The notes: generated by a model from the sequence alone, not told the origin. Shown: positions 4,833 through 46,122, counted from the stretch's first letter. The stretch: 46,218 bases of DNA from Candidatus Woesearchaeota archaeon (GCA_964497715.1 CAZCDH010000002.1:2810-49027), one strand, 5' to 3'. Made by a program: numbers and translations.

Positions 4833-5668
4833 AGTTTCAACAAGACACAAAATCTCACATCCTCCTCTCCTTCAACAGGTATATCAACATATTGGAATTC
4901 TTCACAGGCATTCAAACCATTACTACTAAATGTTAATTGATTGGCATAATCTATCTCTCCAGCAGAATAACTATATCCGTAACCAGAAAAAGGTATACCA
5001 TTAATATTACAAAATAAATTATAATCAGGATATCCAAGATAATCTCCACTATAACAACTAACAATTGCATTTCCAGCTCTCAAAGCCCTTCCAACAGGAA
5101 TTTCAACAACTGCCAAAAGACTATCTATAGTTCCAATATAATCTCCTCTACTTAATTCAATTGGATAACTAATAGACTGCTTCATCCCATTATCTGTTAT
5201 CAATGGAGCTTCTAAAACCATTTCACTAATCTCAGTAACAGAAAGACCAACTCCTTCAAATGAATCAAACACTAATTCAATACAACTATCAAGATCTAAA
5301 TCTTCTTCCATAAAATTTCTAATCTCATTACCTACCCTTTCAACACTCGGCAAATAAGTTCGAGGAACTCTGCCATCATAAGCATAAGCAACATTAGTAT
5401 CGTTCCAAGAAAGACTAATTTCCTCCAAAGGAGAATTAATTCCACCCCTTAACATCACATGTCTAACAGCGCTAAGTAAACTCGCTTCAGCACAAGACTC
5501 AATTCCAGATCTAACAGGTTCAATCTGTGCAGAAACAAATCTTTCTGACTCTTCACCTGTCAATTCATTAGGAAAAATATTGCCACGTAATTGAAAAAGA
5601 AGTCCCACAATAGCTAAAACAACAATACCTAAAATTATGAAAATCGTCACCTGCCCTCTTTTATTCAT
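4826..5668 (-). CDS. Secreted protein with class III (prepilin-type) signal peptide, type IV pilin-like
   Basis: The N-terminus is MNKRG|QVTIFIILGIVVLAIVGLLF. A TTTATAAA box lies about 23 nt upstream of the ATG, consistent with a leaderless transcript. The stop overlaps the giant gene ATG by 7 nt. Confidence 0.55.
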   Translation of the reverse strand: MNKRGQVTIFIILGIVVLAIVGLLFQLRGNIFPNELTGEESERFVSAQIEPVRSGIESCAEASLLSAVRHVMLRGGINSPLEEISLSWNDTNVAYAYDGRVPRTYLPSVERVGNEIRNFMEEDLDLDSCIELVFDSFEGVGLSVTEISEMVLEAPLITDNGMKQSISYPIELSRGDYIGTIDSLLAVVEIPVGRALRAGNAIVSCYSGDYLGYPDYNLFCNINGIPFSGYGYSYSAGEIDYANQLTFSSNGLNACEEFQYVDIPVEGEEDVRFCVLLKLC

Positions 5669-8883: not shown

Positions 8884-9540
8884 TTATAGAAAATACTCTA
8901 TATCTTCAAGTTCAGAAAATCCACGAATAACATTATCATTTATCACAATGCTTGGGAAACTATCTATACCATACAAGGACTTCAAAATTCCTACCTCTTC
9001 AGATTCAAGATCATAATCAAATGAATAAACTCGCACAGAAGAAGGGTTCTCACTTTTTATGTAACTTAGAATGAAACCTTGCCTCTCACAATCCTCGCAT
9101 AAATCATTACCTTGGGAATCTTCTTTATTGGAATAGAAGTACAAAATAAGGTCATAATCTGAACCACACTCCTCCTTAATCTTCTTATAATGTAACCAAT
9201 CATAAATCTCTAAAAGAGTATAATATTTCTTCAAGTCCATAACCTTTTGATGAGTTTTTCCTAGCTTAGTTTCCAACTGCATTATTTCTGCAGAAACATA
9301 ACCAAACTCATTTTTCACAAAAGAATCAGACTTATAATCACAAATTTTGTCTTCAAGAAGGGCATTTCTTAATTCTAATCTAAACATATCATACCTAGTT
9401 TCATCATTAAACCTATCAACATGTTCAACAAACATTCGATCAGCAACCATACCAAATAAAAATGCAACAACAAAAATTAAACCAGTTATAACAAACGCCA
9501 GAATATAATTCTTTTTTGTAACTGTTCTTTTAACTACCAT
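8884..9540 (-). CDS. Membrane-anchored thioredoxin-fold protein with CxxC (putative extracytoplasmic thiol:disulfide oxidoreductase)
   Basis: One N-terminal TM segment (YILAFVITGLIFVVAFLFGMV). The C-terminal part reads LILYFYS...CEDC...VRVYSFD...FPSIVINDNVIRGF, consistent with a Trx fold (CxxC plus a cis-Pro strand). Confidence 0.5.
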   Translation of the reverse strand: MVVKRTVTKKNYILAFVITGLIFVVAFLFGMVADRMFVEHVDRFNDETRYDMFRLELRNALLEDKICDYKSDSFVKNEFGYVSAEIMQLETKLGKTHQKVMDLKKYYTLLEIYDWLHYKKIKEECGSDYDLILYFYSNKEDSQGNDLCEDCERQGFILSYIKSENPSSVRVYSFDYDLESEEVGILKSLYGIDSFPSIVINDNVIRGFSELEDIEYFL

Positions 9541-10787
9541 TTTTGTTTTTTACCAAATATCATATCTATCAGGATTCCAAGCCAAACAAACACAAGGAAC
9601 AAACCATATACAACTAAGTATAATGGAAGGAGAATCCACTTTTCTTTAAATAACTTTTCCTCATGATGATTTATTGCAGAAAACAACAATACCATCAGAG
9701 TAGTCGTAGCAAAGATCATCAAAAGAATATTTGCATACTCTATACTAAACCACCAGAATCCGGAAAAATCAATAAAATGTAAAATATCAAAATTAATATC
9801 ATAAAGATTAATAAAAAAATCATAAATATTACTAACTAATTTTACGATACCTATCATCATCAGTACTAAGACTAACCACCCCATAGCAAAAAATGCAGGA
9901 AATTGTAATAGACCAAAATCACCATACTGTTTATTAAAAATCATAGACCTATATTTCAAAGTATTGTAAAATCCACCCTTATACCATCGATTTCTCTGTT
10001 TGTAAAAACTTTTCCAAGTTTCAGGGGCAGAAGTTTCAACAACAACTTTATTATTCTGACGAATTCTTTTATGATGTTTCTGTAAATTTAAACTTAATTC
10101 TAAATCCTCTGTCAAATTATCCTCATCAAATCCTCCAATTTCATCAATATCTTTTTTCTTATAGACACTAAAAGGTCCTGGAGAAACCGGGATACAATCT
10201 ACAAAATCCATAATATATTTATAGAAAAATGTTACAAGATATTCAATCCATTGATATTTTAGAAGACTATTAAATGGATCTCTAACTTTTATGGCTGGAA
10301 GAACACACGCAGTATCTTTATCAATAGAAAATGTAGGTAACATCTCCATCAAAGCATTTTTTCCAACTGTAGAGTCTGCATCAAAAACAACAAAATACTC
10401 GCCTTTGGCCATCTTAAGAGCGATATTCAAAACAGCGCCCTTACCACGATTTGGTTTGCTAACTAATTTTATATTTCTATCTTTATGTTCCTTAATAATC
10501 TTCTCAACAACTTTTTTTGTACCATCTGAACTTCCATCATCCATAACAAAAAGTTCAATTTTATCGCTAGGATAATCTAAATTCAAAACAGAGAGAATAG
10601 TTTTCTTAATTCTTTTCTCTTCATTATATGCAGGAATAGCAATACTAACAAGAGGAAACTTTTTCAAACTCTTTACAACCAAAGGTTTTGCACTCTCCTT
10701 ATCAAGATATGTAAGTAACCAAAATACCAATAAATACAAACTGATAAATGTTACAAACCAATAAAATATCATATATGTCGACATCAT
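9534..10787 (-). CDS. Family 2 glycosyltransferase, processive (cellulose/chitin/PNAG-synthase-like), multi-TM
   Basis: Motifs DDGSSDGT, FDADS, TEDLELS and QRNRW (QxxRW), with an N-terminal TM and a C-terminal TM bundle. Confidence 0.8.
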   Translation of the reverse strand: MMSTYMIFYWFVTFISLYLLVFWLLTYLDKESAKPLVVKSLKKFPLVSIAIPAYNEEKRIKKTILSVLNLDYPSDKIELFVMDDGSSDGTKKVVEKIIKEHKDRNIKLVSKPNRGKGAVLNIALKMAKGEYFVVFDADSTVGKNALMEMLPTFSIDKDTACVLPAIKVRDPFNSLLKYQWIEYLVTFFYKYIMDFVDCIPVSPGPFSVYKKKDIDEIGGFDEDNLTEDLELSLNLQKHHKRIRQNNKVVVETSAPETWKSFYKQRNRWYKGGFYNTLKYRSMIFNKQYGDFGLLQFPAFFAMGWLVLVLMMIGIVKLVSNIYDFFINLYDINFDILHFIDFSGFWWFSIEYANILLMIFATTTLMVLLFSAINHHEEKLFKEKWILLPLYLVVYGLFLVFVWLGILIDMIFGKKQKW

Positions 10788-10819
10788 GTAATTTCGAGAA
10801 TTACTAAAAACTTTTAAGA

Positions 10820-11158
10820 CTATCTAACAATGAAATAAATTCCAGAAAGAATCAAAAAAACACCAAACCAATTAAATGGATTAATTTTTTCTCCCAAAAA
10901 TACAGAAGCAAAAATCATAACCCAAATATAACTAGTAGCAATTACTGGATAGAGTAAAGAAACCTCTCCAAATTTTAAAGCAAAGATAAATAAAACTGTG
11001 GCAAGAGCATACAAAAATAATCCCAATAATATATGATAATTAGTTAATATACTAAAGTCTAATTTTGCACTAGGTGCACCAAGTTTGAAGAAAATCTGGC
11101 CAATAGCACCAAGAAAAGCACAGAAAGCTACAAATAAAATCAAAATATATTTCTCCAT
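10820..11158 (-). CDS. Small 4-TM EamA/SMR-like transporter (ArnE/ArnF-type flippase subunit-like)
   Basis: 112 aa with four hydrophobic helices. It is sandwiched between glycosyltransferase genes. Confidence 0.55.
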   Translation of the reverse strand: MEKYILILFVAFCAFLGAIGQIFFKLGAPSAKLDFSILTNYHILLGLFLYALATVLFIFALKFGEVSLLYPVIATSYIWVMIFASVFLGEKINPFNWFGVFLILSGIYFIVR

Positions 11159-11164
11159 CTTAAA

Positions 11165-11857
11165 TTAGTTAGAGTACCTACCTTTTAAATTATTTTTCAT
11201 TATCTTGAAAAGCTCAAAAAGAGTAATAAGATAGTGAATAGGTTTAACTTTACTTCCTTCTACATTCTTCCAGACAACAGGGACCTCTTTAATTTTAATA
11301 TTATCTTTTTGTGCCAAAAACAGAATCTCAAAATCAAAACCAAATCCCTCAATAGTTTGTTTACTAAATAAACTATTGGCCACATCAGATTCATATAATT
11401 TAAATCCGCACTGTGTATCTTTTATTCCTTTGACAACAGATCTAATCAGCAGATTTCCAATACGGCCAAGTAATTTTCTAAAAATATTATTTTGAACTTC
11501 AGAATCTGCCAAAGCTCTCGAACCAATAACGATCGAATAAGAACTCATATACTTTTTCAACTTATCAAATTCTTCAATAGGTGTAGAAAGATCTGCATCA
11601 CTAAATAAAATCAAATCACCACTAGCCATAGCAACCCCTTCTTTTACAGAATATCCTTTCCCTTTATTTTCTCTTTTTTTATTTAATTTAATAGAATTAA
11701 ATCTCTCAACAACAGAACGAGTACCATCACTACTACCGTCATCTACAACAATGATCTCATGAAGATCATCCTTAAAGAATTCAGAAATCTTTTCAAGAGT
11801 ACTAACTATCCTTTTCTCTTCATTATATGCAGGAATTATTATTGAAACTTTAGACAT
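11165..11857 (-). CDS. Family 2 glycosyltransferase, polyprenyl/dolichyl-phosphate sugar synthase-like
   Basis: Contains VSIIIPAYNEE, VDDGSSDGT and SDADLS motifs. It is soluble and 230 aa, like DPM1/ArnC/AglD-type enzymes. Confidence 0.8.
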   Translation of the reverse strand: MSKVSIIIPAYNEEKRIVSTLEKISEFFKDDLHEIIVVDDGSSDGTRSVVERFNSIKLNKKRENKGKGYSVKEGVAMASGDLILFSDADLSTPIEEFDKLKKYMSSYSIVIGSRALADSEVQNNIFRKLLGRIGNLLIRSVVKGIKDTQCGFKLYESDVANSLFSKQTIEGFGFDFEILFLAQKDNIKIKEVPVVWKNVEGSKVKPIHYLITLFELFKIMKNNLKGRYSN

Positions 11858-13217
11858 TTTTATTCCTCAAAACATATTCTTCACACCAACTTGAATTATC
11901 ATAAAAAACAACATCATAATATCTTTTGAAATATTCTAACGGAAATTCTCCTTCAAAATCACACGAAGAATAGAATATACATCCAATACCATTAACTTGA
12001 GATCTTATTTGTGGAGTGGTCCAAGCCCCATAATATGGTTGAACATTATTCCAATGAACGGCCGCCAGAGGACTAGAGCTAGCTACCCTTACATTTTCAG
12101 AACAATATTCTAACAGTTCAGGAACATTCTCTTCGGCATAGAATTGGAGGACATCATTAGTATAGGGGAGAAGACCAAAAGTACTGAATGATACAATAAG
12201 ATAAAGAGCAAGTAAGACATATCTAGCTTTCTTAAATTTAAAATTAACAAAACCCAAACCAATTATTAGACAGATAGCAAATAATATCGGAGTGGTATAC
12301 CTCTCCTCCCTCATAGAAACAAAAAGCTGAAGGAATCCTCCAAAAATCAACATAGGAATCAAAACAAAGAATAATTTTTTCTCATTCATCTTCTTAAAAA
12401 AATGATACAATCCACTTACAAAAAATACCAATAAAAAATTAAAAAATAAAAATAAAAATACTATGTAGAACCAATCATACTGAGTTATCAAAATTGGCAC
12501 ACCATGATTAGTAGATATTGATGACAGTCCAGCTTTCAGAGAAATGAAAGCATCACCGAATTTAATATAATTATAATATAAGTACACACCAAGCATAGCA
12601 AATGCAGTTAAATTAAATCCAAAAAATCTACGAATGGATTTTGTCCTTCTTTTAATAACGTCCCAACCAAGTTTCAAACTAAGTGGAACTAATAAAACTG
12701 CAACAGGATACCTTATCAGCATTGCGAAACCTGCCAAAAATCCAGCTAAAACAGAATTAATAAATCCTCGTTTCAATATAAGATAATAAGCAAAAAGAAT
12801 GAAAAATGTAGCAGGAATACTAGAATATAATCTAAAACCCAAGAAAAAAAACAGAGCATTAAAGGCCAGAACAAAACTTGCAATCAAAGCAACTTTCTTA
12901 TCAAAAATTTTCTTACCTATTAAATAAACCAAATAAATAATTCCAAGATTACAAAACACTTCAAAAATTCTACCAAACAAAACAACATCTAAACCAAGCT
13001 TCCAAAAAATACCAAAAATAAATGGCAAACCTATGGGCCTTAAAAATTCCCAGAATCCAAAAGTTCCAAACATACTTTTTGCCATTCCAATATATACTGC
13101 AGAGTCCCACCAAATACCATTAAATCTGTTAAAGAAAATTAATCTAAGAATAATAGTAGATATAAGAATAAAAAATATGAATTTATTTTCAATAAAAAAT
13201 CTTTTTAGCTTAACCAT
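11850..13217 (-). CDS. GT-C fold glycosyltransferase (ArnT/PMT_2, GT39/GT83-like)
   Basis: More than 10 TM helices in the N-terminal ~350 aa, WWDSAVY in the first loop, and a soluble C-terminal domain. Overlaps the downstream GT2 gene by 8 nt. Confidence 0.7.
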   Translation of the reverse strand: MVKLKRFFIENKFIFFILISTIILRLIFFNRFNGIWWDSAVYIGMAKSMFGTFGFWEFLRPIGLPFIFGIFWKLGLDVVLFGRIFEVFCNLGIIYLVYLIGKKIFDKKVALIASFVLAFNALFFFLGFRLYSSIPATFFILFAYYLILKRGFINSVLAGFLAGFAMLIRYPVAVLLVPLSLKLGWDVIKRRTKSIRRFFGFNLTAFAMLGVYLYYNYIKFGDAFISLKAGLSSISTNHGVPILITQYDWFYIVFLFLFFNFLLVFFVSGLYHFFKKMNEKKLFFVLIPMLIFGGFLQLFVSMREERYTTPILFAICLIIGLGFVNFKFKKARYVLLALYLIVSFSTFGLLPYTNDVLQFYAEENVPELLEYCSENVRVASSSPLAAVHWNNVQPYYGAWTTPQIRSQVNGIGCIFYSSCDFEGEFPLEYFKRYYDVVFYDNSSWCEEYVLRNKNV

Positions 13218-18321: not shown

Positions 18322-19488
18322 ATGGGACTAGAAAAAATAATCAAAAAAAGTAAAAACCTCATATTAGGTTCACTAATTGCAGCACAAGCTATCTCTTTTG
18401 GAGGTTGTGAAAGCAAGATTACTGTACCAGAAGAAGAAAACGTACCATATATAGAATATCAAAACGAAGAAACAAATCAAGAAGGCCAAGTAACATTTGA
18501 AACAGGTGAAACATTACAAATTCTAGATCAAGAAACACAAGAACCGATAGAAGACATAGCAATAAATTATTACACAGATGATTCAGAAGAATATAGAATT
18601 CTAACGATTACAGATGAAACAGATACCTATCTCCCAGCAAGAAGATATCTAGCTAATTTTGAGAACGAAACAGTTTCATTACAAAGATCACAAAATCAAG
18701 AATACACATTTAGAGAACTATCAGAAAATGAAAGAGGACCATTTATGAAATATATGAAAGAAAATATTGAAAACACAAATAATTCACAAAGAACTACAGA
18801 TTGTTCAAATTACATAAGAACAAATAGAGGAGATGAAGTACTTAGAGGAGATAATATTGTTGATAAAATGATAACCTATTTTGTGCCACATGGAGGAGTA
18901 TTAGTAGAAATAGTAAATTTCTTACAAAATCTTGAGGCAATTATTGAAGGATATAATAATTTTGAAGAAATGACTCTTTCAAATAATTGGGATTCATATT
19001 CTTTATCTACAAACGAACAAAATAGTCAATTATGTGGATTACTAATAGAAAGCAATCAACCAGTTATTAATAGCTTTACAAAAAGCATAATAGAAGAGGG
19101 AGAGTATCAAGGATATTATAAAATAGAATTAGATGTAACTGATCTAATTACTTATTTAGATGGAACAACTGACAAAACCATATCATGTACAGGAGATGGA
19201 GAGGAGCATAACCTGTACCAATGGTTAACATTTCAGAATCTAACACATCCAGGTCATGGGTGGGGGCAATGGAGTATTAATACAGATCAAGTAATATCGG
19301 AAGAAAGGGTGATATTTTCACAAATAATGGCAGGAATACCACCTCACGCATTACCTGGAGATTATCTGATCTATGGGAGAATATATGATGACACTTGTGA
19401 ATTCTGGCCAGAAGGCCATTGGGAATATAATCAATTAAACGTAGGATATACAGATACATTAGAAATCACAATTCAACCAAGAAAATAA
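18322..19488 (+). CDS. Secreted, possibly lipid-anchored acidic protein, function unknown
   Basis: Signal peptide ending in the lipobox-like AISFGGC. The body is rich in E, N and T and has no recognisable motif. Confidence 0.6.
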   Translation: MGLEKIIKKSKNLILGSLIAAQAISFGGCESKITVPEEENVPYIEYQNEETNQEGQVTFETGETLQILDQETQEPIEDIAINYYTDDSEEYRILTITDETDTYLPARRYLANFENETVSLQRSQNQEYTFRELSENERGPFMKYMKENIENTNNSQRTTDCSNYIRTNRGDEVLRGDNIVDKMITYFVPHGGVLVEIVNFLQNLEAIIEGYNNFEEMTLSNNWDSYSLSTNEQNSQLCGLLIESNQPVINSFTKSIIEEGEYQGYYKIELDVTDLITYLDGTTDKTISCTGDGEEHNLYQWLTFQNLTHPGHGWGQWSINTDQVISEERVIFSQIMAGIPPHALPGDYLIYGRIYDDTCEFWPEGHWEYNQLNVGYTDTLEITIQPRK

Positions 19489-19536
19489 GAAAACTTATAA
19501 ATAAAGATATTCTAAATTAACATAGGTGATTAATTA

Positions 19537-20058
19537 ATGAAAACTCATTCTAGTAAAAGAGGAGCAATAGAACTATCAATGACAACAATAATAGTAGTAG
19601 TCATTGGAGTAACATTATTAACACTAGGATTAACTTTTGTAAAAAACATCATGGGTGGAGCAGAAGGAATAAGCGAAGAAGCTTTCACTGAAGCAGATAG
19701 AATGATTAGAGACATGATGGGAAGTGATGAAGAATTTTATATATCGGGAATTACATTTAATGTTAGACCTGGTGAAAGAATAACTGCAGGAGTGGGAGTA
19801 AGAGATTATAACAACTGGACAACACTTGTACTAACCCCTGAAGTAACAGGTGGAGAATGTAGTGCAGATTGGATTTTACTTCCAGAGAGTACACTAAATA
19901 CAAATCCTGGAGATTTAACATCGATTCCATTCCAAATACTTGTCCCAGGAGGTACACCCGTCGGACCAACTTGTTTTTACACAATAACGGCAACTTCGGC
20001 AAACCCTTCACAAGTTTATGGATATAAAACAATAATTGTTAATCTAGTGAGTGATTAA
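19537..20058 (+). CDS. Archaeal type IV pilin-like protein (class III signal peptide)
   Basis: The N-terminus is MKTHSSKRG|AIELSMTTIIVVVIGVTLLTLGLTF. A GGTGAT Shine-Dalgarno site lies 8 nt upstream. The globular part is small and beta-rich. Confidence 0.65.
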   Translation: MKTHSSKRGAIELSMTTIIVVVIGVTLLTLGLTFVKNIMGGAEGISEEAFTEADRMIRDMMGSDEEFYISGITFNVRPGERITAGVGVRDYNNWTTLVLTPEVTGGECSADWILLPESTLNTNPGDLTSIPFQILVPGGTPVGPTCFYTITATSANPSQVYGYKTIIVNLVSD

Positions 20059-27602: not shown

Positions 27603-29051
27603 ATGTATGCTCCAACTCAATCAGAAGATTATAACGAATGGATAGAAATCTACAATGACGAAGATCATGAAATAAGAATATCAAATCTGACAATCTGTAA
27701 TAATAACATTTTAGAAGGGTTCATTAATCATTCGAATGGATTGGGTTACCTCCAGAACATCGATACAATACCTCCAAATAGTTTTGCTATAATTACAGAC
27801 GGAGGTTCCGGAACAGAGGCATACGATAACTTTGATATTGCAGAAAACTCAGTATCATTACATACAAGTGGTGCAACAATCTGTGGAGGATTAGCAAACG
27901 AAGATAAACTAATAATTCTAAATTATAATGAAGAACCTGAAGACGCATTACACTATTATTCAAATTGGGGAGCAAGAGATAATGGAAAAACTCTATGCAA
28001 ACTAGATAATTTGTGGAAAGAATGTACACCGACTCCAGGATATCAAAACTCTCAAGAAAACACAATCCATAACTATACCCTCAAAATAAATGAATTCCTT
28101 CCAAATCCAGAAGGATATGATAATGCGCCTATGCCAAAAGGAGAATGGATAGAATTATTTAATTATGGTACAAAAGAACTAGATCTAACAAATGCAACAA
28201 TAAGAGACAACACATTGAATAGGAAATTAATAATCTCAAACACAAACACCTATACACAATTAATAAAACCAAAAGAATATCTTGTTGTTTACTTAAATGG
28301 AGCATATTCAGGATTTCTAAATAATGATGAAGATATAGAAAAAATAATTCTTTTCTCTCCAGAAGACATAGAATTAGATAGGGTAACTTATACAGATACT
28401 AAAGAAGGAGAATCATGGTCGAAAGTAGATAATGTGTGGAGACTAACAAAGCCTACACCTGGAGAAGAAAATCCTGACGATTCAGAGAAAGTGAAAGACT
28501 CAATAATATCAATTGAAAAGCTATATTTAGGATCAGATAATAAAGCAAAATTTGGAGACAATATCCGAGTAAAATTAAATATCTATAAAGGGAATGCAAC
28601 AAAAGAAATGGTCGAGATGTATATACTCTCTGAAGAAGGAAGTAAACTAACTAAAACCACTAAAACAAATCTCGGATCAAAATATACAACTTATGACATC
28701 ACATTACCTTTGCAAATTCTACCTAATTGTAATTTAAACTATCCAAATAAAAATTACACAATAATAGTAAAGGGATTAGACGCAGAAAACAAGATAGAAA
28801 TTCCGATAAATGGAACAACAGACAAATTATGCGAAATAATCCAAGATAAATGTACAGAGGAAGAAGTTGTTGCATTGATGGAGAAGACAGGAGTAGAAAC
28901 AGTTATAAATCTCTCCAAAGACATTACAGGAGAAGTAATTTATGAATCAACAAGCAAGAAAGCTCAGAGATCAGCAATTTACTTTTTTTGCTTGATATTG
29001 ATATTAGTAATAATACAAATGGTCATAGAAAATGGAAAAAATAAAGATTAA
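27603..29051 (+). CDS. Secreted, C-terminally anchored protein with two lamin-tail domains (LTD)
   Basis: ITEVMYAP..SEDYNEWIEIYND..HEIRISNLTI and KINEFLPNPEG......GEWIELFNYGTKELDLTNATIRD match the LTD consensus. C-terminal TM segment AIYFFCLILILVIIQMVI. The true start is probably upstream of the first ATG (see findings). Confidence 0.75.
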   Translation: MYAPTQSEDYNEWIEIYNDEDHEIRISNLTICNNNILEGFINHSNGLGYLQNIDTIPPNSFAIITDGGSGTEAYDNFDIAENSVSLHTSGATICGGLANEDKLIILNYNEEPEDALHYYSNWGARDNGKTLCKLDNLWKECTPTPGYQNSQENTIHNYTLKINEFLPNPEGYDNAPMPKGEWIELFNYGTKELDLTNATIRDNTLNRKLIISNTNTYTQLIKPKEYLVVYLNGAYSGFLNNDEDIEKIILFSPEDIELDRVTYTDTKEGESWSKVDNVWRLTKPTPGEENPDDSEKVKDSIISIEKLYLGSDNKAKFGDNIRVKLNIYKGNATKEMVEMYILSEEGSKLTKTTKTNLGSKYTTYDITLPLQILPNCNLNYPNKNYTIIVKGLDAENKIEIPINGTTDKLCEIIQDKCTEEEVVALMEKTGVETVINLSKDITGEVIYESTSKKAQRSAIYFFCLILILVIIQMVIENGKNKD

Positions 29052-29436
29052 CACAATAATAGAAATAGTGGGCATGCCAAAAGAACACGTAGTAGATACA
29101 ATGCAAAAAGTAGTTGACCTTATAGAAAAAGATGAGGAAATAAAACTAGAAAGCAAAGATACTGCCGAACCTGAACTAGTTAAAGAACTTTGGTCTACGT
29201 TTACAGAATTCGAACTAGAGTTTAAAACCTTCAAAAAATTAACAGGATTTTGCTTTGATTTCATGCCATCTTCAGTAGAAATAATATCTCCAGAAAAACC
29301 AGAACTAAATTCCAAAGATATTGAAGATTTATTGAATGATGTACTTGCTAAAACTCATCAATACGATATGGCATTAAAAAGAATGATACTTGAAAAAAGA
29401 GCAAAAGAAAGACAAGAAAATTCTAAGACGGCTTAA
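29032..29436 (+). CDS. Hypothetical acidic cytoplasmic protein
   Basis: ORF of 134 aa with coding-like composition and no recognisable motif. It overlaps both neighbours. Confidence 0.5.
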   Translation: MEKIKINTIIEIVGMPKEHVVDTMQKVVDLIEKDEEIKLESKDTAEPELVKELWSTFTEFELEFKTFKKLTGFCFDFMPSSVEIISPEKPELNSKDIEDLLNDVLAKTHQYDMALKRMILEKRAKERQENSKTA

Positions 29437-30748
29437 GAAAGGGATATCCTTGATTAGGCCTATTTTTTACTTTTTTATGAAGGAAGTAACCAAGCATAAT
29501 AAGAAGAATCAATATTACTATAACAGAGATTATGCCCTTTATTGATTTTTCTTCTGGTTCAACATAACAAGAACCACTATCAGTATTACATACAAAACCA
29601 GATGGACAATCCAAATCACTTGAACACAACTCAACAACAGATTCTGCAATACAAGCTCCACTTGTCAAATTACAAAAGTACCCTATATTACAATCATCGT
29701 CATTGCCACACCCACTAAAATTATTAGGAATCGCTCCTTCAATTTCAATATAAACGGGAAAATAGTCAAAATCTGAGCCACTATTCAAAGTTATATTCCC
29801 ATAATAATGACCAGGCAACGAATTTAGATTTTCATTTATATTAATATATATTTTACTAGTTTCACCAGCACTAATAGAATCTAAACTAACAATCTCTAAA
29901 TTAAGAACTTCTTCCAAATTACCTGTTAAACCTAAATTAATTTCTGCGACCGAATAATCATAAAAATTACCAACTTCTAAAAACCCTTCTTTACTCTCAT
30001 TAGATGAAATACTTATATTAAAATTATTCACAGCAGAAACAAATGAAACTAAATTACTTTCAGAACTAACATTAGAAGTTTGTAACTCTCCTGCCCAGAC
30101 CAGAACAGAATAAAACTTATCTCCATAAAATATTTCTAAAAATTGATTATCAGTTCGATCAAATATTAAATTATCGACATATACATCAAATATTCCAGAA
30201 TTTCCAGAATTAATATACAAGCTATTACTAGTAAAGTCGATAGAATTTGAATCACTACTTTCTAGAAAAATATCTAAATCTTCAGAACCACTATTTACAA
30301 CAAAAAAATTAAACACTTCGCTAGTTGAAAATGAATCAAGAATGATAACTCCTGGAGATATAGAAAGAGTTTGATTGGACGGAACAATTGAAAACTCACT
30401 AGTTTGATTTGTTTGAACTATGAGATTATTTTTTAGATAAGATAAATCATCTACAAAAAGAGAATAATTTCCTACAATTAAATCCCTATCAAGATTAAAA
30501 TAAATATAATAATGGCCATCATCAAGCTCAAAAACAAATGGAGAGATATCGACAATTTCTCCAGTAGGATTAATTAATTCAAAATTACGATAAGTTATAT
30601 CCTCTAATAACTCTTCAGAATATTCGATCTCTGCCTGAAAGGTTTCACCAGAACTATATTCAGATCTCTCAATCTCAATAGATAGAGGATCTGCACTAAC
30701 TACTGAACAAGCCACTAAAAATATAAAAATATAAAATGCAATTTTCAT
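29423..30748 (-). CDS. Type I membrane surface protein: beta-rich ectodomain, two 4-Cys stalk modules, TM anchor
   Basis: Signal peptide MKIAFYIFIFLVACSVVSA|D. The stalk reads CGNDDDCNIGYFCNLTSGAC and CSSDLDCPSGFVCNTDSGSC. Then TM segment IISVIVILILLIMLGYFL and a short basic tail. Confidence 0.7.
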   Translation of the reverse strand: MKIAFYIFIFLVACSVVSADPLSIEIERSEYSSGETFQAEIEYSEELLEDITYRNFELINPTGEIVDISPFVFELDDGHYYIYFNLDRDLIVGNYSLFVDDLSYLKNNLIVQTNQTSEFSIVPSNQTLSISPGVIILDSFSTSEVFNFFVVNSGSEDLDIFLESSDSNSIDFTSNSLYINSGNSGIFDVYVDNLIFDRTDNQFLEIFYGDKFYSVLVWAGELQTSNVSSESNLVSFVSAVNNFNISISSNESKEGFLEVGNFYDYSVAEINLGLTGNLEEVLNLEIVSLDSISAGETSKIYININENLNSLPGHYYGNITLNSGSDFDYFPVYIEIEGAIPNNFSGCGNDDDCNIGYFCNLTSGACIAESVVELCSSDLDCPSGFVCNTDSGSCYVEPEEKSIKGIISVIVILILLIMLGYFLHKKVKNRPNQGYPFLKPS

Positions 30749-30749
30749 T

Positions 30750-32486
30750 TTATTTCTTTTTTTCCTTTAAGAGATCCTTTGCCTTTTTAATAGAGTCATC
30801 AAGCTCTTTCTCCAACCTACTGTCTTTTCTATTAGGAATATATTTTCTAACATTCGGTCGAGTAATAGCCTGTCTAGCTACAGGATATGAAGGTTTTGGT
30901 AATTCTCTTTTTGGAGCAGGAAACCCACTAGAAGGTTGAGGACCTTTAGGTTTGAACAAATTAAACTTCTTATTTTTATATGCCCAATAACCTGCAAAAC
31001 TACCACCTGCAATAACTATTATGGCTATAAACCAAGCTAACCATCCAAGTCCACCTTCAGAAAGAGTACAGTGACCACTAGTTATATTACAAAATTCACC
31101 ATCATCACAATCACTATCAAGATTACAACCAGAAGGGGCAACAGGAGTTATTTGACAAGTATGTGTAGCTAGATCACAATACTCTCCACTATCACATTGA
31201 TTATCAGAAGTACATTCAAAAGAAATTATCTCACAAGAACAACTATTAGGATTACAAGTATATCCAGTTTGAGTACAATCTACATCAGATCTACACTCAT
31301 CTGTTTCATTACAAGTTTGAACAGTTACACACTGACAATCTATACAAGTTAAATCACCAGTACAAGAAACTCCAATCTCACAAGTTTCATTACCTTCAAG
31401 AATACCATTATTACAAGAACCTTCAACAGGAATAGGAACAGGAACTTCATCACTAAACGCCCCCCACAGAACCATAGAAGTAGTTTTTACACTATCATCC
31501 CAAGAACCTCCAGAAAGTTGATGCAGTCCTAACCAATCTTTAGAATCAGAAACTAACTGACTACTTCCCAAATTTGAACTTCTTAAAGCATGAATAGACA
31601 ATGCAGTAGTATATTCGCTATTATCCCAATTACTTCCTAACTGATTTTCAGTTAACCAATCAGAATACTCGCTACCACTAGTCATTAATAATAAAAATGA
31701 GTTTCCTAAGGCATCATCAGAACAACTAGAATCTAAAAATGGAAGAGTTGCAGCATTTTCACCCAATTCATTTAAAACAAAACTAGCATATCCGGTATAT
31801 GCACAACTACAGGCACCGCCTGCAGAAAAACAACCATTTTCCAGTTCTAAAAGATTACTACCAGAATTTGTAAGATAATAATCTCCAATATATTTTTTAA
31901 ATAATAATGAAGGAGAGAATGAAGCTCCTACACAATCAATAGAAAAACTTTCATAAACATCTGCAGCAGAACCTTTAACGCAACTCTCAAAATTAATCCA
32001 ATGTTCGCCAATACAACCAGGACCACCTACGATCTCAGTACCATTTAATTCGAAAATTGTCGAAGTACCCTCATAATCAACAGAACAAGTTGATTGTTGA
32101 GTTCCGCCAGTAAATCTAACTTGAATCAACCAATCACCATCTTGCATGGCAGGATATCTATTAACTAATAACCAATCAATTTCATCACTAACATTTTCAC
32201 CAAATTTAGACAATGCTAAACTAGCAAGAGAAGTATAATATACATTACCTTCCCAATTATCTACATTTCTAGTAGATTTTAATTTTTCTATACCTTCACT
32301 AACATCATAACCAAAATTTCTCAAAGCAAGAACAGATAATGCAACCTCATCAGTATCTTTATTCCATTCAACTTCGTCCATTTCAGAAAAAAGCCAATCT
32401 GTTGCAGAAGTAACATTGAGTTCTGCAGAAACAAGACTAGGTAAACCAAAAAATATTAAACAAAATAATAAAATAATCTTTTTCAT
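30750..32486 (-). CDS. Type I membrane surface protein: alpha/alpha-toroid (prenyltransferase/terpene-cyclase-like repeat) ectodomain, Cys-rich stalk, TM, Pro/Lys-rich tail
   Basis: Signal peptide ...LPSLVSA|E. Repeats of the form ..ALSVLALRNFGY.., ..YYTSLASLALSKFG.. and ..TTALSIHALRSS..SGGSWDD. The stalk contains CTSDNQCDSGEYCDLATHTC and CNLDSDCDDGEFCNITSGHC. TM segment WLAWFIAIIVIAGGSFAGYWAY. Confidence 0.65.
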   Translation of the reverse strand: MKKIILLFCLIFFGLPSLVSAELNVTSATDWLFSEMDEVEWNKDTDEVALSVLALRNFGYDVSEGIEKLKSTRNVDNWEGNVYYTSLASLALSKFGENVSDEIDWLLVNRYPAMQDGDWLIQVRFTGGTQQSTCSVDYEGTSTIFELNGTEIVGGPGCIGEHWINFESCVKGSAADVYESFSIDCVGASFSPSLLFKKYIGDYYLTNSGSNLLELENGCFSAGGACSCAYTGYASFVLNELGENAATLPFLDSSCSDDALGNSFLLLMTSGSEYSDWLTENQLGSNWDNSEYTTALSIHALRSSNLGSSQLVSDSKDWLGLHQLSGGSWDDSVKTTSMVLWGAFSDEVPVPIPVEGSCNNGILEGNETCEIGVSCTGDLTCIDCQCVTVQTCNETDECRSDVDCTQTGYTCNPNSCSCEIISFECTSDNQCDSGEYCDLATHTCQITPVAPSGCNLDSDCDDGEFCNITSGHCTLSEGGLGWLAWFIAIIVIAGGSFAGYWAYKNKKFNLFKPKGPQPSSGFPAPKRELPKPSYPVARQAITRPNVRKYIPNRKDSRLEKELDDSIKKAKDLLKEKKK

Positions 32487-41134: not shown

Positions 41135-41698
41135 ATGAATGAAGTGGATCTAGTAAAAAATACAGATATCTGTAAAAATTGTAAGAACATTGTAGTGGGA
41201 AAAGGAAATATAAATTCTAAAATCTTATTGGTTGGAGAAGCTCCAGGGAAGAATGAAGATGAACAAGGAATTCCATTTGTTGGAGCAGCAGGAAAAAATC
41301 TAGACAATTTATTAAAAAATGCAAATTTAGATCTAACAGATATTTATATAACAAATATTTTGAAATGTAGACCACCAAAAAACAGAAACCCTACTATTAT
41401 TGAGATTAAAGCCCACACCCCTTGGCTGTTAAAACAAATAAAAGAGATGAAACCAAAAGTAATCTGTTCATTGGGGAATTATGCAACAAAGTTCTTCTTA
41501 GCATTAGGTAATGTAAATGAAATGAAATTGCAACCAGGAATATCGAAAGTTCATGGAAAACCTAAAGATATAGAAATAGAAGGGATAAAAATTAAACTAA
41601 TACCTTTATTTCATCCTGCAGCAATAATCTATAATAGATCTTTAATAGATGAATGGAAAAAGGATTTAGAAATAATTAAATCCGAAATAAAAAATTAA
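41135..41698 (+). CDS. udg: Uracil-DNA glycosylase, family 4
   Basis: CKNCKN, LLVGEAPGKNEDEQGIPFVGAAGKNL and LFHPAA. Confidence 0.85.
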   Translation: MNEVDLVKNTDICKNCKNIVVGKGNINSKILLVGEAPGKNEDEQGIPFVGAAGKNLDNLLKNANLDLTDIYITNILKCRPPKNRNPTIIEIKAHTPWLLKQIKEMKPKVICSLGNYATKFFLALGNVNEMKLQPGISKVHGKPKDIEIEGIKIKLIPLFHPAAIIYNRSLIDEWKKDLEIIKSEIKN

Positions 41699-42603
41699 TT
41701 GCCAATAACCGTTACACTAGTTTCTACACTCTCTACATAATTATAGGATAGAATTATATTCAAATTATCAGTATAACTACTTGTATCTTCAACAACTCTT
41801 TCGCAGATCAATATTTTAGAATTATCTCCTAGAGATACGATTCCAGAATTTGATTTTCCGCCAGGGAAATAACAGATTACATCTGCAGGTTCTAAATTAA
41901 CATAGATTTTACCTTCATCTAAAACTCCAAATTCATCACATGAAATATCTTTAGAATAAACATCTCCAGATCCAGAATTTTCTAAAACTATAGTAAATCT
42001 TATTGAATCGCTTGAATGATAATCTTCACTAATCGAAGTTACTTGTACAGGTGCAGAAGAAACATCACCTTTGCTAATTTTTTCACCATTTATGTCACAA
42101 GTTTGTACCCCAGTTTGTTCTATAGTAGTAGAATCCATGCAAACTGTGGAAACTGCAGTAGTAGTATAAGGATAACACATCTTAGCATGAATTGAAAAAT
42201 CTTGAGAACCATAAACTGTACCAATATAAGAACCTTCGCCAAGAGAAACTATCTCTTCCCCTCCAACATCAACATCTTTTGTAATTCCAAATAATTCGCT
42301 AATAGTTGGAACATATTCTGTAATCAAACCTTCCCAAGAAGTAGGACTAACTCCAAACAATTTCACCTTAACTTCTCCGGCAAGAACATCATGTTCACCA
42401 GCATTTTTAATAAGAACTTGGAAAGGAACACTCTCTCCAGCATTAAATTGTGTAAGAGGTGCACCTTCAACAAAAGATAAACTTAATCCACTAATTCCTC
42501 CACTAAATGGCCCTTCACCATCAGAACCAGAATCACCATTATCACAACCAGATATAAATAAACCAAAAATCAAGAAAACCATTATATAAATTATATTTTT
42601 CAC
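41695..42603 (-). CDS. Secreted lipobox protein, paralog group with 42620..43507
   Basis: GTG start with a GGTGAT Shine-Dalgarno site 5 nt upstream. Signal peptide ending in the lipobox LFISGC. The body is beta-rich, with SAPVQVTSI...FTIVLENSGSGDV. Confidence 0.7.
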   Translation of the reverse strand: MKNIIYIMVFLIFGLFISGCDNGDSGSDGEGPFSGGISGLSLSFVEGAPLTQFNAGESVPFQVLIKNAGEHDVLAGEVKVKLFGVSPTSWEGLITEYVPTISELFGITKDVDVGGEEIVSLGEGSYIGTVYGSQDFSIHAKMCYPYTTTAVSTVCMDSTTIEQTGVQTCDINGEKISKGDVSSAPVQVTSISEDYHSSDSIRFTIVLENSGSGDVYSKDISCDEFGVLDEGKIYVNLEPADVICYFPGGKSNSGIVSLGDNSKILICERVVEDTSSYTDNLNIILSYNYVESVETSVTVIGN

Positions 42604-42619
42604 AGTGTATCACCTATAT

Positions 42620-43507
42620 TTATCTATCACCTGTTTTTCTTTTTAAAGCTATCGCTCCAGTACTAGCACTTATAGAATAATCATAATTTAGTTTTATAAT
42701 CAAAGAATCCATATAAAACTCTTGAGCACCTAAACTAATGAAAGAATCACATTTTACAGTTTTTCTATCTTCAATCATCCTAATTCCACCATTTCTTAAG
42801 GGATAACACTCAAAAATAGAAGGAGTACCAGCTAATTTAATATCCATCATCAAAATACTTTCCCCAGTTTCAGAAACAATCTCGCCATAAGGAGTTTTTG
42901 TAATGTCTATCTCAAGATATAATCTATTCTGTCCACCTTCTGGAACAATACTAGTTTCAATTCGATCAATAGTCACAGGTGCAAAATCAGAAGTTATTTT
43001 ATTTCCCTTAGTGAGAACATCATTAGATCTACAATTTTCAATCTCTTGAGCAGGATCTCTCTTTAAACATATTTCTCCACGAACTACAGATTCAAGACTA
43101 TACTCTAATTCAGCGGTTATAGTAGTTGTATCAATTCCCATCTCAAGATTATGATAATAATACGATCCGGTCTCTGGAAAATAAAACCTGCTCTCTTCAA
43201 CATATTTAGAATTTCCTGACAATTCTGCAGGGGCCATAAAGATAGCGCGACATTCAGGCTCTTGTATTCCTCCAAAACTATTAGCAGGAGTATCAGAAAG
43301 ACACAAAGTACCTTCAACAGCTTTTGGAAGATTATTGATCAACTCAAGACCAACCATAAAATTAGCATCCTCTCTTAGTTCATTGGGAGGTTGATTTAAT
43401 AAGAATCCTATGTCTACTCCACCAATATTAGTTTTTTCAACAGGACCAGCACATCCTGAACTAAATAATAAAACTACACTAATCAATAAAATCAATAAAT
43501 ACCTCAT
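42620..43507 (-). CDS. Secreted lipobox protein, paralog group with 41695..42603
   Basis: Signal peptide ending LFSSGC. By eye it has the same block order as its neighbour (GG.x.G..L, FAPVTIDRI...LYLEIDITK, ..IKLNYDYS). Confidence 0.7.
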   Translation of the reverse strand: MRYLLILLISVVLLFSSGCAGPVEKTNIGGVDIGFLLNQPPNELREDANFMVGLELINNLPKAVEGTLCLSDTPANSFGGIQEPECRAIFMAPAELSGNSKYVEESRFYFPETGSYYYHNLEMGIDTTTITAELEYSLESVVRGEICLKRDPAQEIENCRSNDVLTKGNKITSDFAPVTIDRIETSIVPEGGQNRLYLEIDITKTPYGEIVSETGESILMMDIKLAGTPSIFECYPLRNGGIRMIEDRKTVKCDSFISLGAQEFYMDSLIIKLNYDYSISASTGAIALKRKTGDR

Positions 43508-43548
43508 TTTAAATTAAAAAAAACTTTGAGATATAAAAATGTTTCTAA

Positions 43549-44907
43549 TTATGAAGTTATGCAAAGTTCGCCATCAAAATCACAATTACTAAAACCACAG
43601 GCATCATTATTACAATTTACTTCACTTTTATATCCTTCACAACCTATAATATCTGCAGAACAAGTCTCACAAGAACCAAAATCAAGACCATCATAATTAA
43701 TCATACATCCTACAGCAGAAATGCAATCTTCTTCATTAGATATATCTCCACAAATATCTCTAACTTCTGTTTGGACAATAGTAATAACTTCATTTTTTTT
43801 GACTTCGTATGAATAATCAGCCTCAGCTTTAATTAAACTTACAAAAAAATCATCTCCTTCTGGAAGAGGTAACACTCTAAGATTACATCGCAAATTTATA
43901 TCATTATAATCATCTACACAATCTTGTTCAAAGGGATAAACTAGATTTGCCGAACAATCTACATTTATTTTATTTTCTAAGGCACTCTCTCCAATTTCAT
44001 ATATCTTAAACTGTCCATCAACCTCTCCACTATCAACAAAATCACAGAATCTAAGATCTTGACCAAATTCAATAGCAAATGGAACATAAAGTTTCAAACT
44101 ATTAACTTTCTTTAAATTTCCATCACCTGTATCTATCAAATCTACATTAAAATTAACAAAATTATTAGATGATGAAAAAGGCTGACTTGTTTCACTGCTC
44201 AACCTAATATCTATTGGACCTTCAGTAATTCTAGATCTCATAATATTAGCAGGTTTGATTAATAGGCTATCTGTAACATGATATTTATTATTGATAAACG
44301 GATCTATACCTTCAACCAAAAAGGACTCTAAGATCTCTGAATCCATAAAGTACATCCTATATGTAGAAAGTGTAACAAAATCATACCATGAATTCAAAGT
44401 TACTTTCTTTGCAACTTCTTCTTTATCTGCAATAATTCCGCTTGGAAAAAGGCAACTCACATCCTGTCTTCGAACAACACCTTCGCCATAAACAACGAAA
44501 CCTCCAGGATAAACTTCAGAATCATAATAATAATCTTCCAATTCACATGAAAAAGAAACATTCATTCCCTCTTTTCTAAGACTTGCAGCTTCAACAACTC
44601 CAGTCAAATAAATTGCCTCCCCAGACATAAACTTATTCTTAGTTTTTTCAAACCTTATAATATCAACTCCCAAATCCACATTGAGTTCATTTTCAACCAC
44701 CTCAGATTCCCATTTAAATTGATCAGAAATCTCGGTAGGATTCCAAAAAGCATTCCAAAAATTAAACAAATCTTTTTTAATAGGTGTTCCAGAATCATCC
44801 AAAGCTACTAACCCTTCTTTAGTCATAGTTGATGCAGCACCAGATCGCCAAAGATTAAATAAAAAAATAACTCCAATTATTAATATAACAACAATAAGAA
44901 CTTTCAT
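43549..44907 (-). CDS. Signal-anchored secreted protein with Cys-dense C-terminal module
   Basis: N-terminal anchor MKVLIVVILIIGVIFLFNLW. The central blocks resemble the two lipobox proteins. The last ~67 aa contain 10 Cys. Confidence 0.7.
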   Translation of the reverse strand: MKVLIVVILIIGVIFLFNLWRSGAASTMTKEGLVALDDSGTPIKKDLFNFWNAFWNPTEISDQFKWESEVVENELNVDLGVDIIRFEKTKNKFMSGEAIYLTGVVEAASLRKEGMNVSFSCELEDYYYDSEVYPGGFVVYGEGVVRRQDVSCLFPSGIIADKEEVAKKVTLNSWYDFVTLSTYRMYFMDSEILESFLVEGIDPFINNKYHVTDSLLIKPANIMRSRITEGPIDIRLSSETSQPFSSSNNFVNFNVDLIDTGDGNLKKVNSLKLYVPFAIEFGQDLRFCDFVDSGEVDGQFKIYEIGESALENKINVDCSANLVYPFEQDCVDDYNDINLRCNLRVLPLPEGDDFFVSLIKAEADYSYEVKKNEVITIVQTEVRDICGDISNEEDCISAVGCMINYDGLDFGSCETCSADIIGCEGYKSEVNCNNDACGFSNCDFDGELCITS

Positions 44908-45000
44908 AAACTTGCCTAGTATTTCTTGGAAAGTTATTTTCCATCACCCGATATATGAATTGATTCACTAATCTTTAATCACCTTTTAATTAAACTAGAT

Positions 45001-46122
45001 TTAGACTATTCTTATTTTAAGTGTTTCTATTATAAATGAATTATCTGGAACAATCTTAATCAAATTAATTCCAGTAGACACCATTGAAGTAATATCTTTA
45101 GTGAATGATTTAGGGCCATTACTAATATCAAACTCTACCTCATTGATAATCAGTTTTGCGCCTGAACCAGATTCATCAAAAACCATATCAAGATAAACAA
45201 GATTTTCACCTAAAGAATTTACATTAAAAGAATACTCAGGAAAAATAATCTCATTAAACTCACTATTTACTTTTATATCACTAAAAACATAATCTCCATT
45301 ATTGATAACAAATTTTATTTCATTGATTCCACTTTTTATAGTACTAACATTTAAATCAATAATCCGATTAAGATTTTCACAGGACAAAGTTTCAGACAAA
45401 ATAGAATTTCCATTCAAATAAATTTTAAGTAAATTATTTCCAGAGTAAGTATTACAATACATAGAATAAGATAAACTAGCTTTTTTGATATTAGTTATTT
45501 CAAATGAAGGAATAACGAAACTATCACTTCCACTAGCATATATATCTTCATAGCCAGTTTTTATCGAAATATCAATCAAATCATAGTAACTAGTTGACCA
45601 AAAATTGGGAGAAGTGACATAAAATTTTAACTCATTGCTATCCCTTACATAATCTACAGGTAGAGTTAACACAACTATATTTCCTTCAACAAACTCAGAA
45701 AATACATCATGACCATTTAACTCCACATTTAATTCCCCTTTTTTCTCATAAATTGCAAAAGACAAAACTAAACTTTTCAAATTTTCTAAACTATCTATAT
45801 TAAAGGAGAAAGATTGATCCTTACTATTAAATAAATTTCTTTTAACTTGTGAATTCTCACTTATTGTTCTAATCTCAGGTTCATATCTAAAAAATAAATT
45901 CATTTGTTCTAGACCGTATATTACTTTAGTTTCTGAAGAAGGATAAACTAAACCTGGAGATTCAGATAAAATAACATTTCCAGAATTAGAAAAACAATCA
46001 TCAGAACATTCGAGATCTAAAAGCCTACATTTATCACAAGGAGGCAAAAGCAAGGCATAAATTATTATAAGAAATGCTATTATCAAAATTAATCCAGAAA
46101 CTGAAGCTTTTTTATTATACAT
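45001..46122 (-). CDS. Secreted or signal-anchored protein, function unknown (possible class III signal)
   Basis: The N-terminus MYNKKA|SVSGLILIIAFLIIIYALLLPP is followed by CDKC...CSDDC. The body is rich in N, S and I and appears beta-rich. AT-rich promoter region at 46123..46218. Confidence 0.65.
   Translation of the reverse strand: MYNKKASVSGLILIIAFLIIIYALLLPPCDKCRLLDLECSDDCFSNSGNVILSESPGLVYPSSETKVIYGLEQMNLFFRYEPEIRTISENSQVKRNLFNSKDQSFSFNIDSLENLKSLVLSFAIYEKKGELNVELNGHDVFSEFVEGNIVVLTLPVDYVRDSNELKFYVTSPNFWSTSYYDLIDISIKTGYEDIYASGSDSFVIPSFEITNIKKASLSYSMYCNTYSGNNLLKIYLNGNSILSETLSCENLNRIIDLNVSTIKSGINEIKFVINNGDYVFSDIKVNSEFNEIIFPEYSFNVNSLGENLVYLDMVFDESGSGAKLIINEVEFDISNGPKSFTKDITSMVSTGINLIKIVPDNSFIIETLKIRIV

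Follow-up and report, generated by a model that had tools for sequence, protein, structure and literature searches.

A Conserved Four-Gene Cluster Encoding Predicted Membrane-Tethered Proteins in Woesearchaeota

The described proteins that most closely resemble those considered here are held at the membrane in different ways. The class III-signal binding proteins of Sulfolobales begin with a short basic segment containing a [K/R][G/A] motif; behind it come a helix that is kept on the mature protein and a large globular extracellular part. Lipoproteins of Haloferax volcanii, which belong to the AliA/AliB pathway, have a signal peptide whose hydrophobic region (h-region) ends in a lipobox cysteine. 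Among bacterial proteins, BcsB, the periplasmic subunit of cellulose synthase, is membrane-tethered and extracytoplasmic. Few uncultivated archaea are as abundant as Woesearchaeota and their relatives, whose genomes are tiny and whose presumed lifestyle is one of attachment to other cells; to our knowledge, almost nothing has been described of their envelope or of the machinery by which they contact other cells. Here, we examine a stretch of 46,218 nucleotides (nt) from Candidatus Woesearchaeota archaeon (GCA_964497715.1 CAZCDH010000002.1:2810-49027), referred to throughout as the window, in which four consecutive genes, named A to D, encode uncharacterised exported proteins. The order of these genes is conserved across Woesearchaeota and Nanoarchaeota, and the proteins bear recognisable anchor motifs and beta-rich ectodomains, which are related to one another in C, D and probably B. 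Our preferred reading, to which we give slightly less than an even chance, is that A-D make up a lineage-wide membrane-tethered surface module of Woesearchaeota-type DPANN archaea, in which the proteins would form a complex without enzymatic activity, structural or adhesive in role, on the outer side of the cytoplasmic membrane.

Gene order and conservation of the A-D cluster

The four genes, as called from open reading frames (ORFs; protein lengths in amino acids, aa), are arranged in the following order:

45001..46122, minus strand: gene A, ORF of 373 aa, first gene of the cluster
43549..44907, minus strand: gene B, ORF of 452 aa
42620..43507, minus strand: gene C, ORF of 295 aa
41695..42603, minus strand: gene D, ORF of 302 aa with a GTG start

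Spacing between A and B, B and C, and C and D is 93, 41 and 16 nt, respectively, and the stop codon of D lies in a 4-nt overlap with a convergent uracil-DNA glycosylase gene. Each of the four proteins has a single hydrophobic segment, located at its N-terminus, which agrees with the original prediction that four consecutive minus-strand genes here begin with export signals. The window has a G+C content of ~30% and also encodes a set of housekeeping proteins, including PCNA, a TFIIS-type zinc ribbon protein, aIF2alpha, Nop10 and aRF1, together with ribosomal proteins S19e, L31e and L44e, Hjc and several tRNA synthetases.

A genome scan with an alignment of D orthologues identified 29 distinct Woesearchaeota/Nanoarchaeota genome loci, a taxonomic range that is a lower bound as the scan was seeded with D-type orthologues only. 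Two of these loci lie on closed chromosomes, GW2011_AR20 (CP010426.1) and CP066683.1, and the genomes nearest to the window are metagenome-assembled genomes (MAGs) labelled Woesearchaeota, Nanoarchaeota or "archaeon". These labels and the housekeeping genes mark the organism as a DPANN archaeon of the Woesearchaeota type, and its closest relatives come from Saanich Inlet samples. With ORFs called in all loci, and with iterated hidden Markov model searches seeded by the window proteins, the order A, B, C-type, D-type was found to be identical in every locus having enough sequence; the original prediction would have failed had the genes been unlinked and absent from close relatives, and they are present and linked across the 29 loci. 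One locus that apparently lacked C was found to contain a divergent C (E = 3.6e-9) with a lipobox of its own, and one MAG carries three C/D-type genes. The median gaps across loci, 17, 9 and 12.5 nt, are short, and extra genes are inserted only upstream of A or downstream of D, never within the A-D block. Shine-Dalgarno (SD)-like motifs are present upstream of B in 12 of 22 loci, upstream of C in 9 and upstream of D in 17, and upstream of A in only 3 of the 22, the pattern expected of a single transcript starting at A. A scan for sigma-70 promoters and terminators was uninformative, as expected for an archaeon, with counts no higher than shuffle expectation. On a wider scale, the syntenic neighbourhood reads EF-1beta, an A24 peptidase, geranylgeranyl reductase, A-D, a PHP protein and aIF2alpha.

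Median identity of the orthologues to the window proteins is 32% for A, 26% for B, 28% for C and 39% for D, compared with 45-55% for aIF2alpha, GINS and L44e in the same loci, and the module is retained yet fast-evolving, in the manner of surface proteins. D has few word-indexed homologues. An exhaustive profile search with the C/D alignment places 3,489 representative clusters (50% identity) in the family at E ≤ 0.001, and 2,512 at E ≤ 1e-10, almost all of them ~300 aa long; neither Pfam nor NCBIfam has a model for it. Exact-sequence look-up of ten B orthologues gave only "hypothetical protein" annotations or nameless entries, and keyword matches within two papers on archaeal type IV filament systems make no mention of the A-D cluster.

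Some of the loci (given L numbers) depart from the simple arrangement. Two complete A-B-C-D clusters with 47-70% mutual identity are present in the MAG RIFCSPHIGHO2_01_FULL_29_27 (L018 and L035), representing either a whole-module duplication or two related organisms in one bin. Giant secreted Cys-rich proteins of 1,135-1,614 aa are encoded directly upstream of A, on the same strand, in L017 (2851-6486), L021 (953-6418) and L022 (1607-6451). An apparent fusion of B and C in L022 (7654-9948), of the kind expected of a Rosetta-stone protein, is an artefact: a masked run of N, read as XXXX in translation, occupies the junction.

Anchors and ectodomains of the four proteins

The N-terminus of A and the region upstream of it contain two features:

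46039..46122, minus strand: A residues 1-28, MYNKKA / SVSGLILIIAFLIIIYALLLPP, putative class III signal and hydrophobic anchor helix
46123..46218, no strand: AT-rich intergenic region upstream of A, common to a divergent Peptidase_A24 gene

In the window protein, MYNKKA-SVSG leads into the helix, with the hydrophobic segment at residues 8-26 and a predicted cut site after KKA. The consensus of the A orthologues is MKK[G/A/S]Q-x(5-8)-hydrophobic ~20-LLLPPxER..LL. A short basic N-terminus ending in [K/R]-[G/A/S] is matched by a strict pattern in 19 of 23 A orthologues and by a relaxed one in three of the remaining four (MKSGQ, NKRGN and SRAGQ); the ORF of the other, L015, begins inside the hydrophobic segment and has no motif, and its start is judged to be miscalled. 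By its sequence, the A N-terminus is predicted to be of the archaeal class III (prepilin-like) pattern. On contigs carrying the exact window A protein, a 294-aa PF01478 (Peptidase_A24) gene lies 114 nt upstream of A on the opposite strand, its start codon falling ~19 nt past the right edge of the window. The same divergent arrangement is found in close relatives, and an A24 peptidase gene is located ~0.1-5 kb upstream in 14 of the 16 distinct loci with enough flank. This peptidase has both of the expected Asp motifs (D23 and GGGD) and ~7 hydrophobic segments, and its gene is the sole recognisable prepilin peptidase gene in these neighbourhoods. The orthologue consensus and the adjacent peptidase both strengthen an initial guess that the first protein of the cluster might carry a class III signal. 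In L039 (161-550), a 129-aa ORF that is not an A24 peptidase is found upstream of an identical A protein on a short contig, possibly through strain-level rearrangement or an assembly break.

Beyond the helix, a linker (45940-46040, A residues 28-60) is Asn/Thr-rich and sequon-like in most orthologues, and takes the form CxxC...CxxxC in the lineage of the window as well as in L009, L020, L028 and L032. The remainder of A is repetitive. Residues 102-188 align with residues 199-286 (HHalign 97.8%, E = 7e-13), and residues 296-371 form a weaker third copy (E ~1e-3). A Pfam scan of the 23 orthologues returned BcsB in five and a carbohydrate-binding module (CBM)-like family in three, along with isolated matches to the sugar-binding domain of glycoside hydrolase family 2. 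Three orthologues exceed the BcsB gathering score, at 27.0, 24.1 and 22.2 bits (cut-off 21), and one exceeds the CBM-like cut-off of 27, at 29.7 bits. The BcsB match spans profile positions 5-104 of 606 only, which we read as the first carbohydrate-binding jelly-roll. We ruled out A as a BcsB protein, as there is no full-length match and a single jelly-roll domain type is what the two have in common. The proposed architecture of A, which follows from the Pfam-matched repeats and the N-terminal motif, is thus a prepilin-like helix, a linker and two to three galactose-binding-like jelly-rolls, the domain type being weakly indicated through the Pfam matches in orthologues. Profiles of the A and B families retrieved nothing usable from among PDB sequences, and HHalign detected no similarity between A and B, C or D. 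The window proteins A-D have no Pfam or NCBIfam match above threshold, in keeping with the earlier remark that no motif could be named in them; for the A orthologues that pass Pfam thresholds for BcsB or the CBM-like family, that remark does not hold.

Proteins C and D are predicted lipobox lipoproteins, an assignment that is supported by the conservation of their signal peptides. C has LFSSGC, with the cysteine at position 19, and D has LFISGC, with the cysteine at position 20. Both lipoboxes had been noticed beforehand, and a Cys terminates the h-region in 46 of 46 C/D-type proteins from the loci. A loosened lipobox, allowing extra residues at -3 to -1, is matched by 38 of these 46 relatives, a few of them with Q at -1. 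Predicted lipoproteins, along with the lipidation enzyme AliA, are reported to be prevalent in DPANN archaea (PMC12462473). Invariant in all 46 proteins are the lipobox Cys, the pairs C147/C159 and C234/C253, and Tyr275 (C numbering), and the conserved columns of the family as a whole consist of Cys, Tyr, Pro, Gly, Asn and hydrophobic residues. Several of these columns coincide with the motifs that had been picked out by eye: the lipobox Cys, G-G..G-hydrophobic-x-hydrophobic-x-F, A-P-V, G213 and L285/Y287/Y289. The AlphaFold model of D is all-beta (predicted local distance difference test, pLDDT, 73.7; predicted template modelling score, pTM, 0.71), and residues 49-83 of D give weak, sub-threshold CARDB/DUF11 matches.

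B is built on a different anchor. Its orthologues carry 20-270 extra cytoplasmic residues ahead of a single transmembrane helix, and for this reason the N-terminus of B is assigned, as a prediction, to the signal anchors (N-in), with no cleaved signal. The signal-anchor helix is followed by a low-confidence linker, a two-domain beta ectodomain (~76-381) and a Cys-rich tail, the AlphaFold model as a whole having a pLDDT of 77.2 and a pTM of 0.62, with ~88 in the ectodomain. The tail is found in only 6-7 of 23 B orthologues:

43552..43761, minus strand: B residues 383-452, C-terminal tail with 10-12 Cys, lineage-specific, model confidence 50-80

The original prediction proposed that B, C and D are paralogues. 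For C and D, direct BLASTP gives E = 0.055, colinear over 208 aa, and an intermediate protein (L003_C2) links the two, with E = 5.5e-7 to C and E = 3e-71 and 41% identity to D. The C and D profiles align end to end (HHalign 99.8%, E = 8.9e-29), and they continue to do so after removal of the signal peptides (99.5%, E = 9e-23). On these profile comparisons we regard C and D as certain paralogues. B is more distant. Direct BLASTP of B against C or D finds nothing, and it is with family profiles that B163-381 becomes colinear with C124-292 (HHalign 84.7%, E = 6.7e-6). B trimmed of its transmembrane segment scores 40.5 against the pooled C/D profile (58.8%, E = 9.4e-5), above the controls, in which reversed profiles score 13-14 and none of 20 block-shuffled B profiles exceeds 28. 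In the AlphaFold models of D and B, built from separate alignments, the elements follow one another in a common order: a sandwich at the N-terminus, a strand of unusual length, another sandwich and, at the C-terminus, another very long strand. The long strands, ~25 residues each (D133-157 and D277-300; B163-187 and B353-377), sit exactly at the segments aligned by HHalign. B is probably a membrane-anchored paralogue of C and D; the proposed three-way paralogy stands for C and D and is probable for B, where HHalign probabilities are lower and the models are concordant. The GG-containing N-terminal strand attributed to each protein is a conserved column in C/D and is absent from B.

Structure searches place the two models in similar company. 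Foldseek searches of D (PDB and BFVD) and B (PDB) returned only generic tandem beta-sandwich neighbours, with TM-scores of 0.13-0.30 overall and 0.2-0.3 for D, and the PDB lists of the two overlap in integrin alpha legs, transglutaminase-2 barrels, RbmA, WxLIP, Vps26C, a sialidase immunoglobulin (Ig) linker and complement C5. The description of the locus as operon-like, with four uncharacterised exported products that arose through duplication of one beta-rich module, holds up.

Proposed role of the cluster and alternative explanations

In the reading that we prefer, that of a tethered surface module, A-D would be co-transcribed from the AT-rich region common with the divergent prepilin peptidase gene, as suggested by the tight spacing, the conserved order and the presence of SD-like motifs before the internal genes and not before A. 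The conserved N-terminal motif and the neighbouring A24 peptidase suggest that this enzyme would trim the short basic N-terminus of A, leaving the hydrophobic helix in place. The helix may then hold A in the membrane, the arrangement of the class III-signal binding proteins in Sulfolobales, or may insert A into a type IV filament. Held in this manner, A would use its flexible linker to present two to three modules of jelly-roll/CBM-like type, and these may bind a glycan or another surface ligand. B, through its signal anchor, and C and D, through predicted lipid anchors, would position double beta-sandwich ectodomains braced by conserved disulfides, together forming a membrane-proximal scaffold that is plausibly a hetero-oligomer. 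A check of conserved columns found no invariant constellation of His, Ser, Lys or Asp in the A, B or C/D families, and this lack of conserved catalytic-type residues favours a role in binding or scaffolding over one in catalysis; A-D are unlikely to be enzymes as judged from their alignments. A more ambitious form of the proposal makes A-D the conserved core of a Woesearchaeal cell-surface apparatus: a heteromeric complex with three anchor types, in which a class III-processed, CBM-bearing subunit operates outside filaments, holding the envelope together or docking the cell to a host, and in which the fold arrangement of B, C and D has no solved relative. We consider this version rather unlikely.

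Several observations weigh against the module reading. Because the whole neighbourhood is syntenic, the adjacency of the peptidase could reflect conserved genome order and not functional coupling. Most A orthologues have 5-8 small or polar residues (e.g., QTQAGS) between [K/R][G/A/S]Q and the hydrophobic core, a spacer longer than in classical pilins. The A protein of the window matches no Pfam class III/pilin model (Pfam E ≤ 1, NCBIfam E ≤ 0.1), a test of little power given that a textbook-looking small pilin at 19537-20058 is also unmatched. Neither an ATPase nor a platform gene of a type IV pilus lies within ±10 kb of the cluster in the 29 loci or anywhere in the 46-kb window, the remaining parts of the genomes not having been searched. 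Matches to carbohydrate-binding modules lie close to threshold and are lacking for the A protein of the window itself. Finally, the homology of B to C is only moderately supported.

The same observations can be arranged into other explanations. A-D could supply the building blocks or membrane anchors of an S-layer or envelope lattice in Woesearchaeota, in which case they would belong to the core of the wall and would not act as an adhesin that binds a ligand. A cluster that is near-universal, usually single-copy and fixed in order among housekeeping genes would suit such a component, as would the roughly stoichiometric operon layout, the restriction of conserved residues to structural types, and the all-beta, Ig-like domains with Asn/Thr-rich membrane-proximal linkers that resemble archaeal S-layer glycoproteins. 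However, all four proteins are tethered at their N-termini and are of modest size, and neither sequence nor fold searches returned a solved S-layer protein; we hold this explanation to be unlikely. An improbable reading of about the same standing casts A as a minor pilin of modular build, or as the adhesin at the tip, in a type IV filament whose machinery is encoded elsewhere, with B, C and D as accessory or base proteins of the pilus. The class III-like motif, the adjacent prepilin peptidase and further pilin-like genes in the window all fit this, and so do two published observations: bacterial modular pilins with grafted lectin modules (PMC8179133, PMC9934059), and DPANN genomes reported to contain type IV filament loci (bioRxiv 10.64898/2026.04.22.720090). 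Set against these are the lack of an ATPase or platform gene in the examined neighbourhoods, the polar spacer ahead of the A helix, which is atypical, and the lack of class III signals in B, C and D; moreover, at 373 aa and three domains, A would be bulky for a filament subunit.

Two further explanations give up either the common function or the adhesive one. A-D may act separately at the surface, lying side by side only because synteny was inherited and genes were duplicated locally, and having no function in common, a view consistent with flanking housekeeping genes that are equally syntenic and with an A sequence unrelated to those of B, C and D. Yet the very short or overlapping spacing and the fixed order persist at 25-40% protein identity, and insertions fall upstream of A or downstream of D with none inside the block, leaving independence with a small probability. 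Smaller still is the probability that the module handles polysaccharide, guiding or modifying an exported glycan in a BcsB-like manner as a processing or secretion accessory, which we consider very unlikely. The matches of A orthologues to the BcsB carbohydrate-binding domain and to CBM-like families point in this direction, and the window encodes membrane glycosyltransferases of family 2 (GT2) and of the PMT_2 type, but only ~100 of the 606 BcsB profile positions are matched, the glycosyltransferases are ~30 kb away and unlinked in other loci, and conserved catalytic residues are lacking.

Neighbouring genes, significance and known counterparts

Other parts of the window also encode predicted surface or secreted proteins. 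A left-hand operon (646-5668, minus strand) comprises a 280-aa protein starting MNKRGQ-VTIFIILGIVVLAIVGLL (MNKRGQ-VTIFIIL), a 1239-aa protein with 63 Cys and a 162-aa protein starting MKRGQ-VLGQPF, the N-termini of the 280-aa and 162-aa proteins being textbook class III. This operon had been predicted to share Cys-dense modules with the A-D cluster, a kinship that did not survive comparison: the best match between the B tail and the 1239-aa protein has E = 0.53, none of the operon's proteins matches the cluster or the related loci, and the resemblance through Cys-dense modules is compositional only. Its proteins have no significant Pfam match and no similarity to A-D or to the giants found upstream of A elsewhere, and BLAST ruled out the giants of L017, L021 and L022 as homologues of the 1239-aa protein. 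What the left operon and A-D share, on present predictions, is the use of class III N-termini. On the plus strand (18322-20058), the gene for a 388-aa protein bearing a lipobox-like signal (AISFGGC) precedes that for a small pilin-like protein of 173 aa at 19537-20058, which contains ..SKRGA-IELSMTTIIVVVIGV / SKRGA-IELSMTTIIVVV (SKRGA-IELS); neither has a Pfam match. An uncharacterised secreted pair, of 441 aa and 578 aa (29 Cys), is encoded by adjacent genes at 29423-32486 (minus strand), both with Sec-type signal peptides and no Pfam family. A 482-aa protein (27603-29051, plus strand) has two stretches of Lamin Tail Domain (LTD; Pfam E = 1.6e-19) and no obvious N-terminal signal in the called ORF. 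A glycosylation block at 9534-13217 (minus strand) encodes a 417-aa membrane GT2 and an EamA-like small transporter, along with another GT2 and a PMT_2/GT22-like glycosyltransferase; the block may have a bearing on surface glycans and is unlinked to A-D in other genomes. At 70-405 (minus strand), a 111-aa ORF gives a sub-threshold match to a ParE-like toxin (E = 2e-4, 21.6 bits against a cut-off of 28).

For organisms of this kind, the cluster offers a concrete handle. A-D are candidates for antibodies or tags in enrichment cultures and for the assignment of densities in cryo-electron tomography, and they are useful for asking whether DPANN archaea truly use class III signals and lipoboxes. 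If they prove to be merely more Ig-like surface proteins, their value would lie mainly in annotation, with two new protein families defined and "hypothetical protein" corrected in thousands of genomes.

Each protein of the cluster can be set beside a described system. The similarity of A to the Sulfolobales binding proteins extends from the short basic N-terminus, the [K/R][G/A] motif and a helix that would be retained to a large globular extracellular part without a pilin fold and a predicted dependence on an A24 peptidase. Unlike these proteins, A is made of jelly-roll repeats in place of a substrate-binding-protein fold, has no adjoining ATP-binding cassette (ABC) transporter, and shares its operon-like cluster with three beta-sandwich proteins anchored in other ways. 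PilB and PilC of Streptococcus sanguinis likewise fuse a pilin-like helix to lectin-type or other binding modules; they are, in contrast, bacterial, encoded inside a complete pilus locus and shown in filaments, whereas the neighbourhoods of A contain no assembly ATPase or platform gene. With BcsB (PF03170), the second repeat of A orthologues shares the first carbohydrate-binding jelly-roll above the Pfam cut-off, and the first repeat of one orthologue exceeds the cut-off for the CBM-like family PF14683. A is also membrane-tethered and extracytoplasmic, as BcsB is, but it lacks flavodoxin-like domains and a synthase partner, and its anchor is N-terminal where that of BcsB is C-terminal.

C and D resemble the lipoproteins of Haloferax volcanii in having h-regions that end in [L/V/I/F]-x-[G/A/S]-C, and differ from them in an ectodomain family without a named relative and in a lipidation that is predicted from sequence. 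Among Foldseek neighbours, those that come closest to the B and D models are Vibrio RbmA, Enterococcus WxLIP, the C-terminal domains of AglB and integrin alpha legs. These proteins, like the models, consist of two or more Ig/fibronectin type III-like sandwiches in series, and have extracellular structural or binding roles; at TM-scores of 0.13-0.30, root mean square deviations above 14 Å and 6-15% identity, the resemblance is that of generic beta-sandwiches, and nothing in the Foldseek matches corresponds to the two ~25-residue strands that run through each of these models. The evidence gives no sign of an unprecedented mechanism; class III- and lipobox-anchored archaeal surface proteins are known kinds, and in A-D they are brought together in a cluster that is unnamed and clade-wide.

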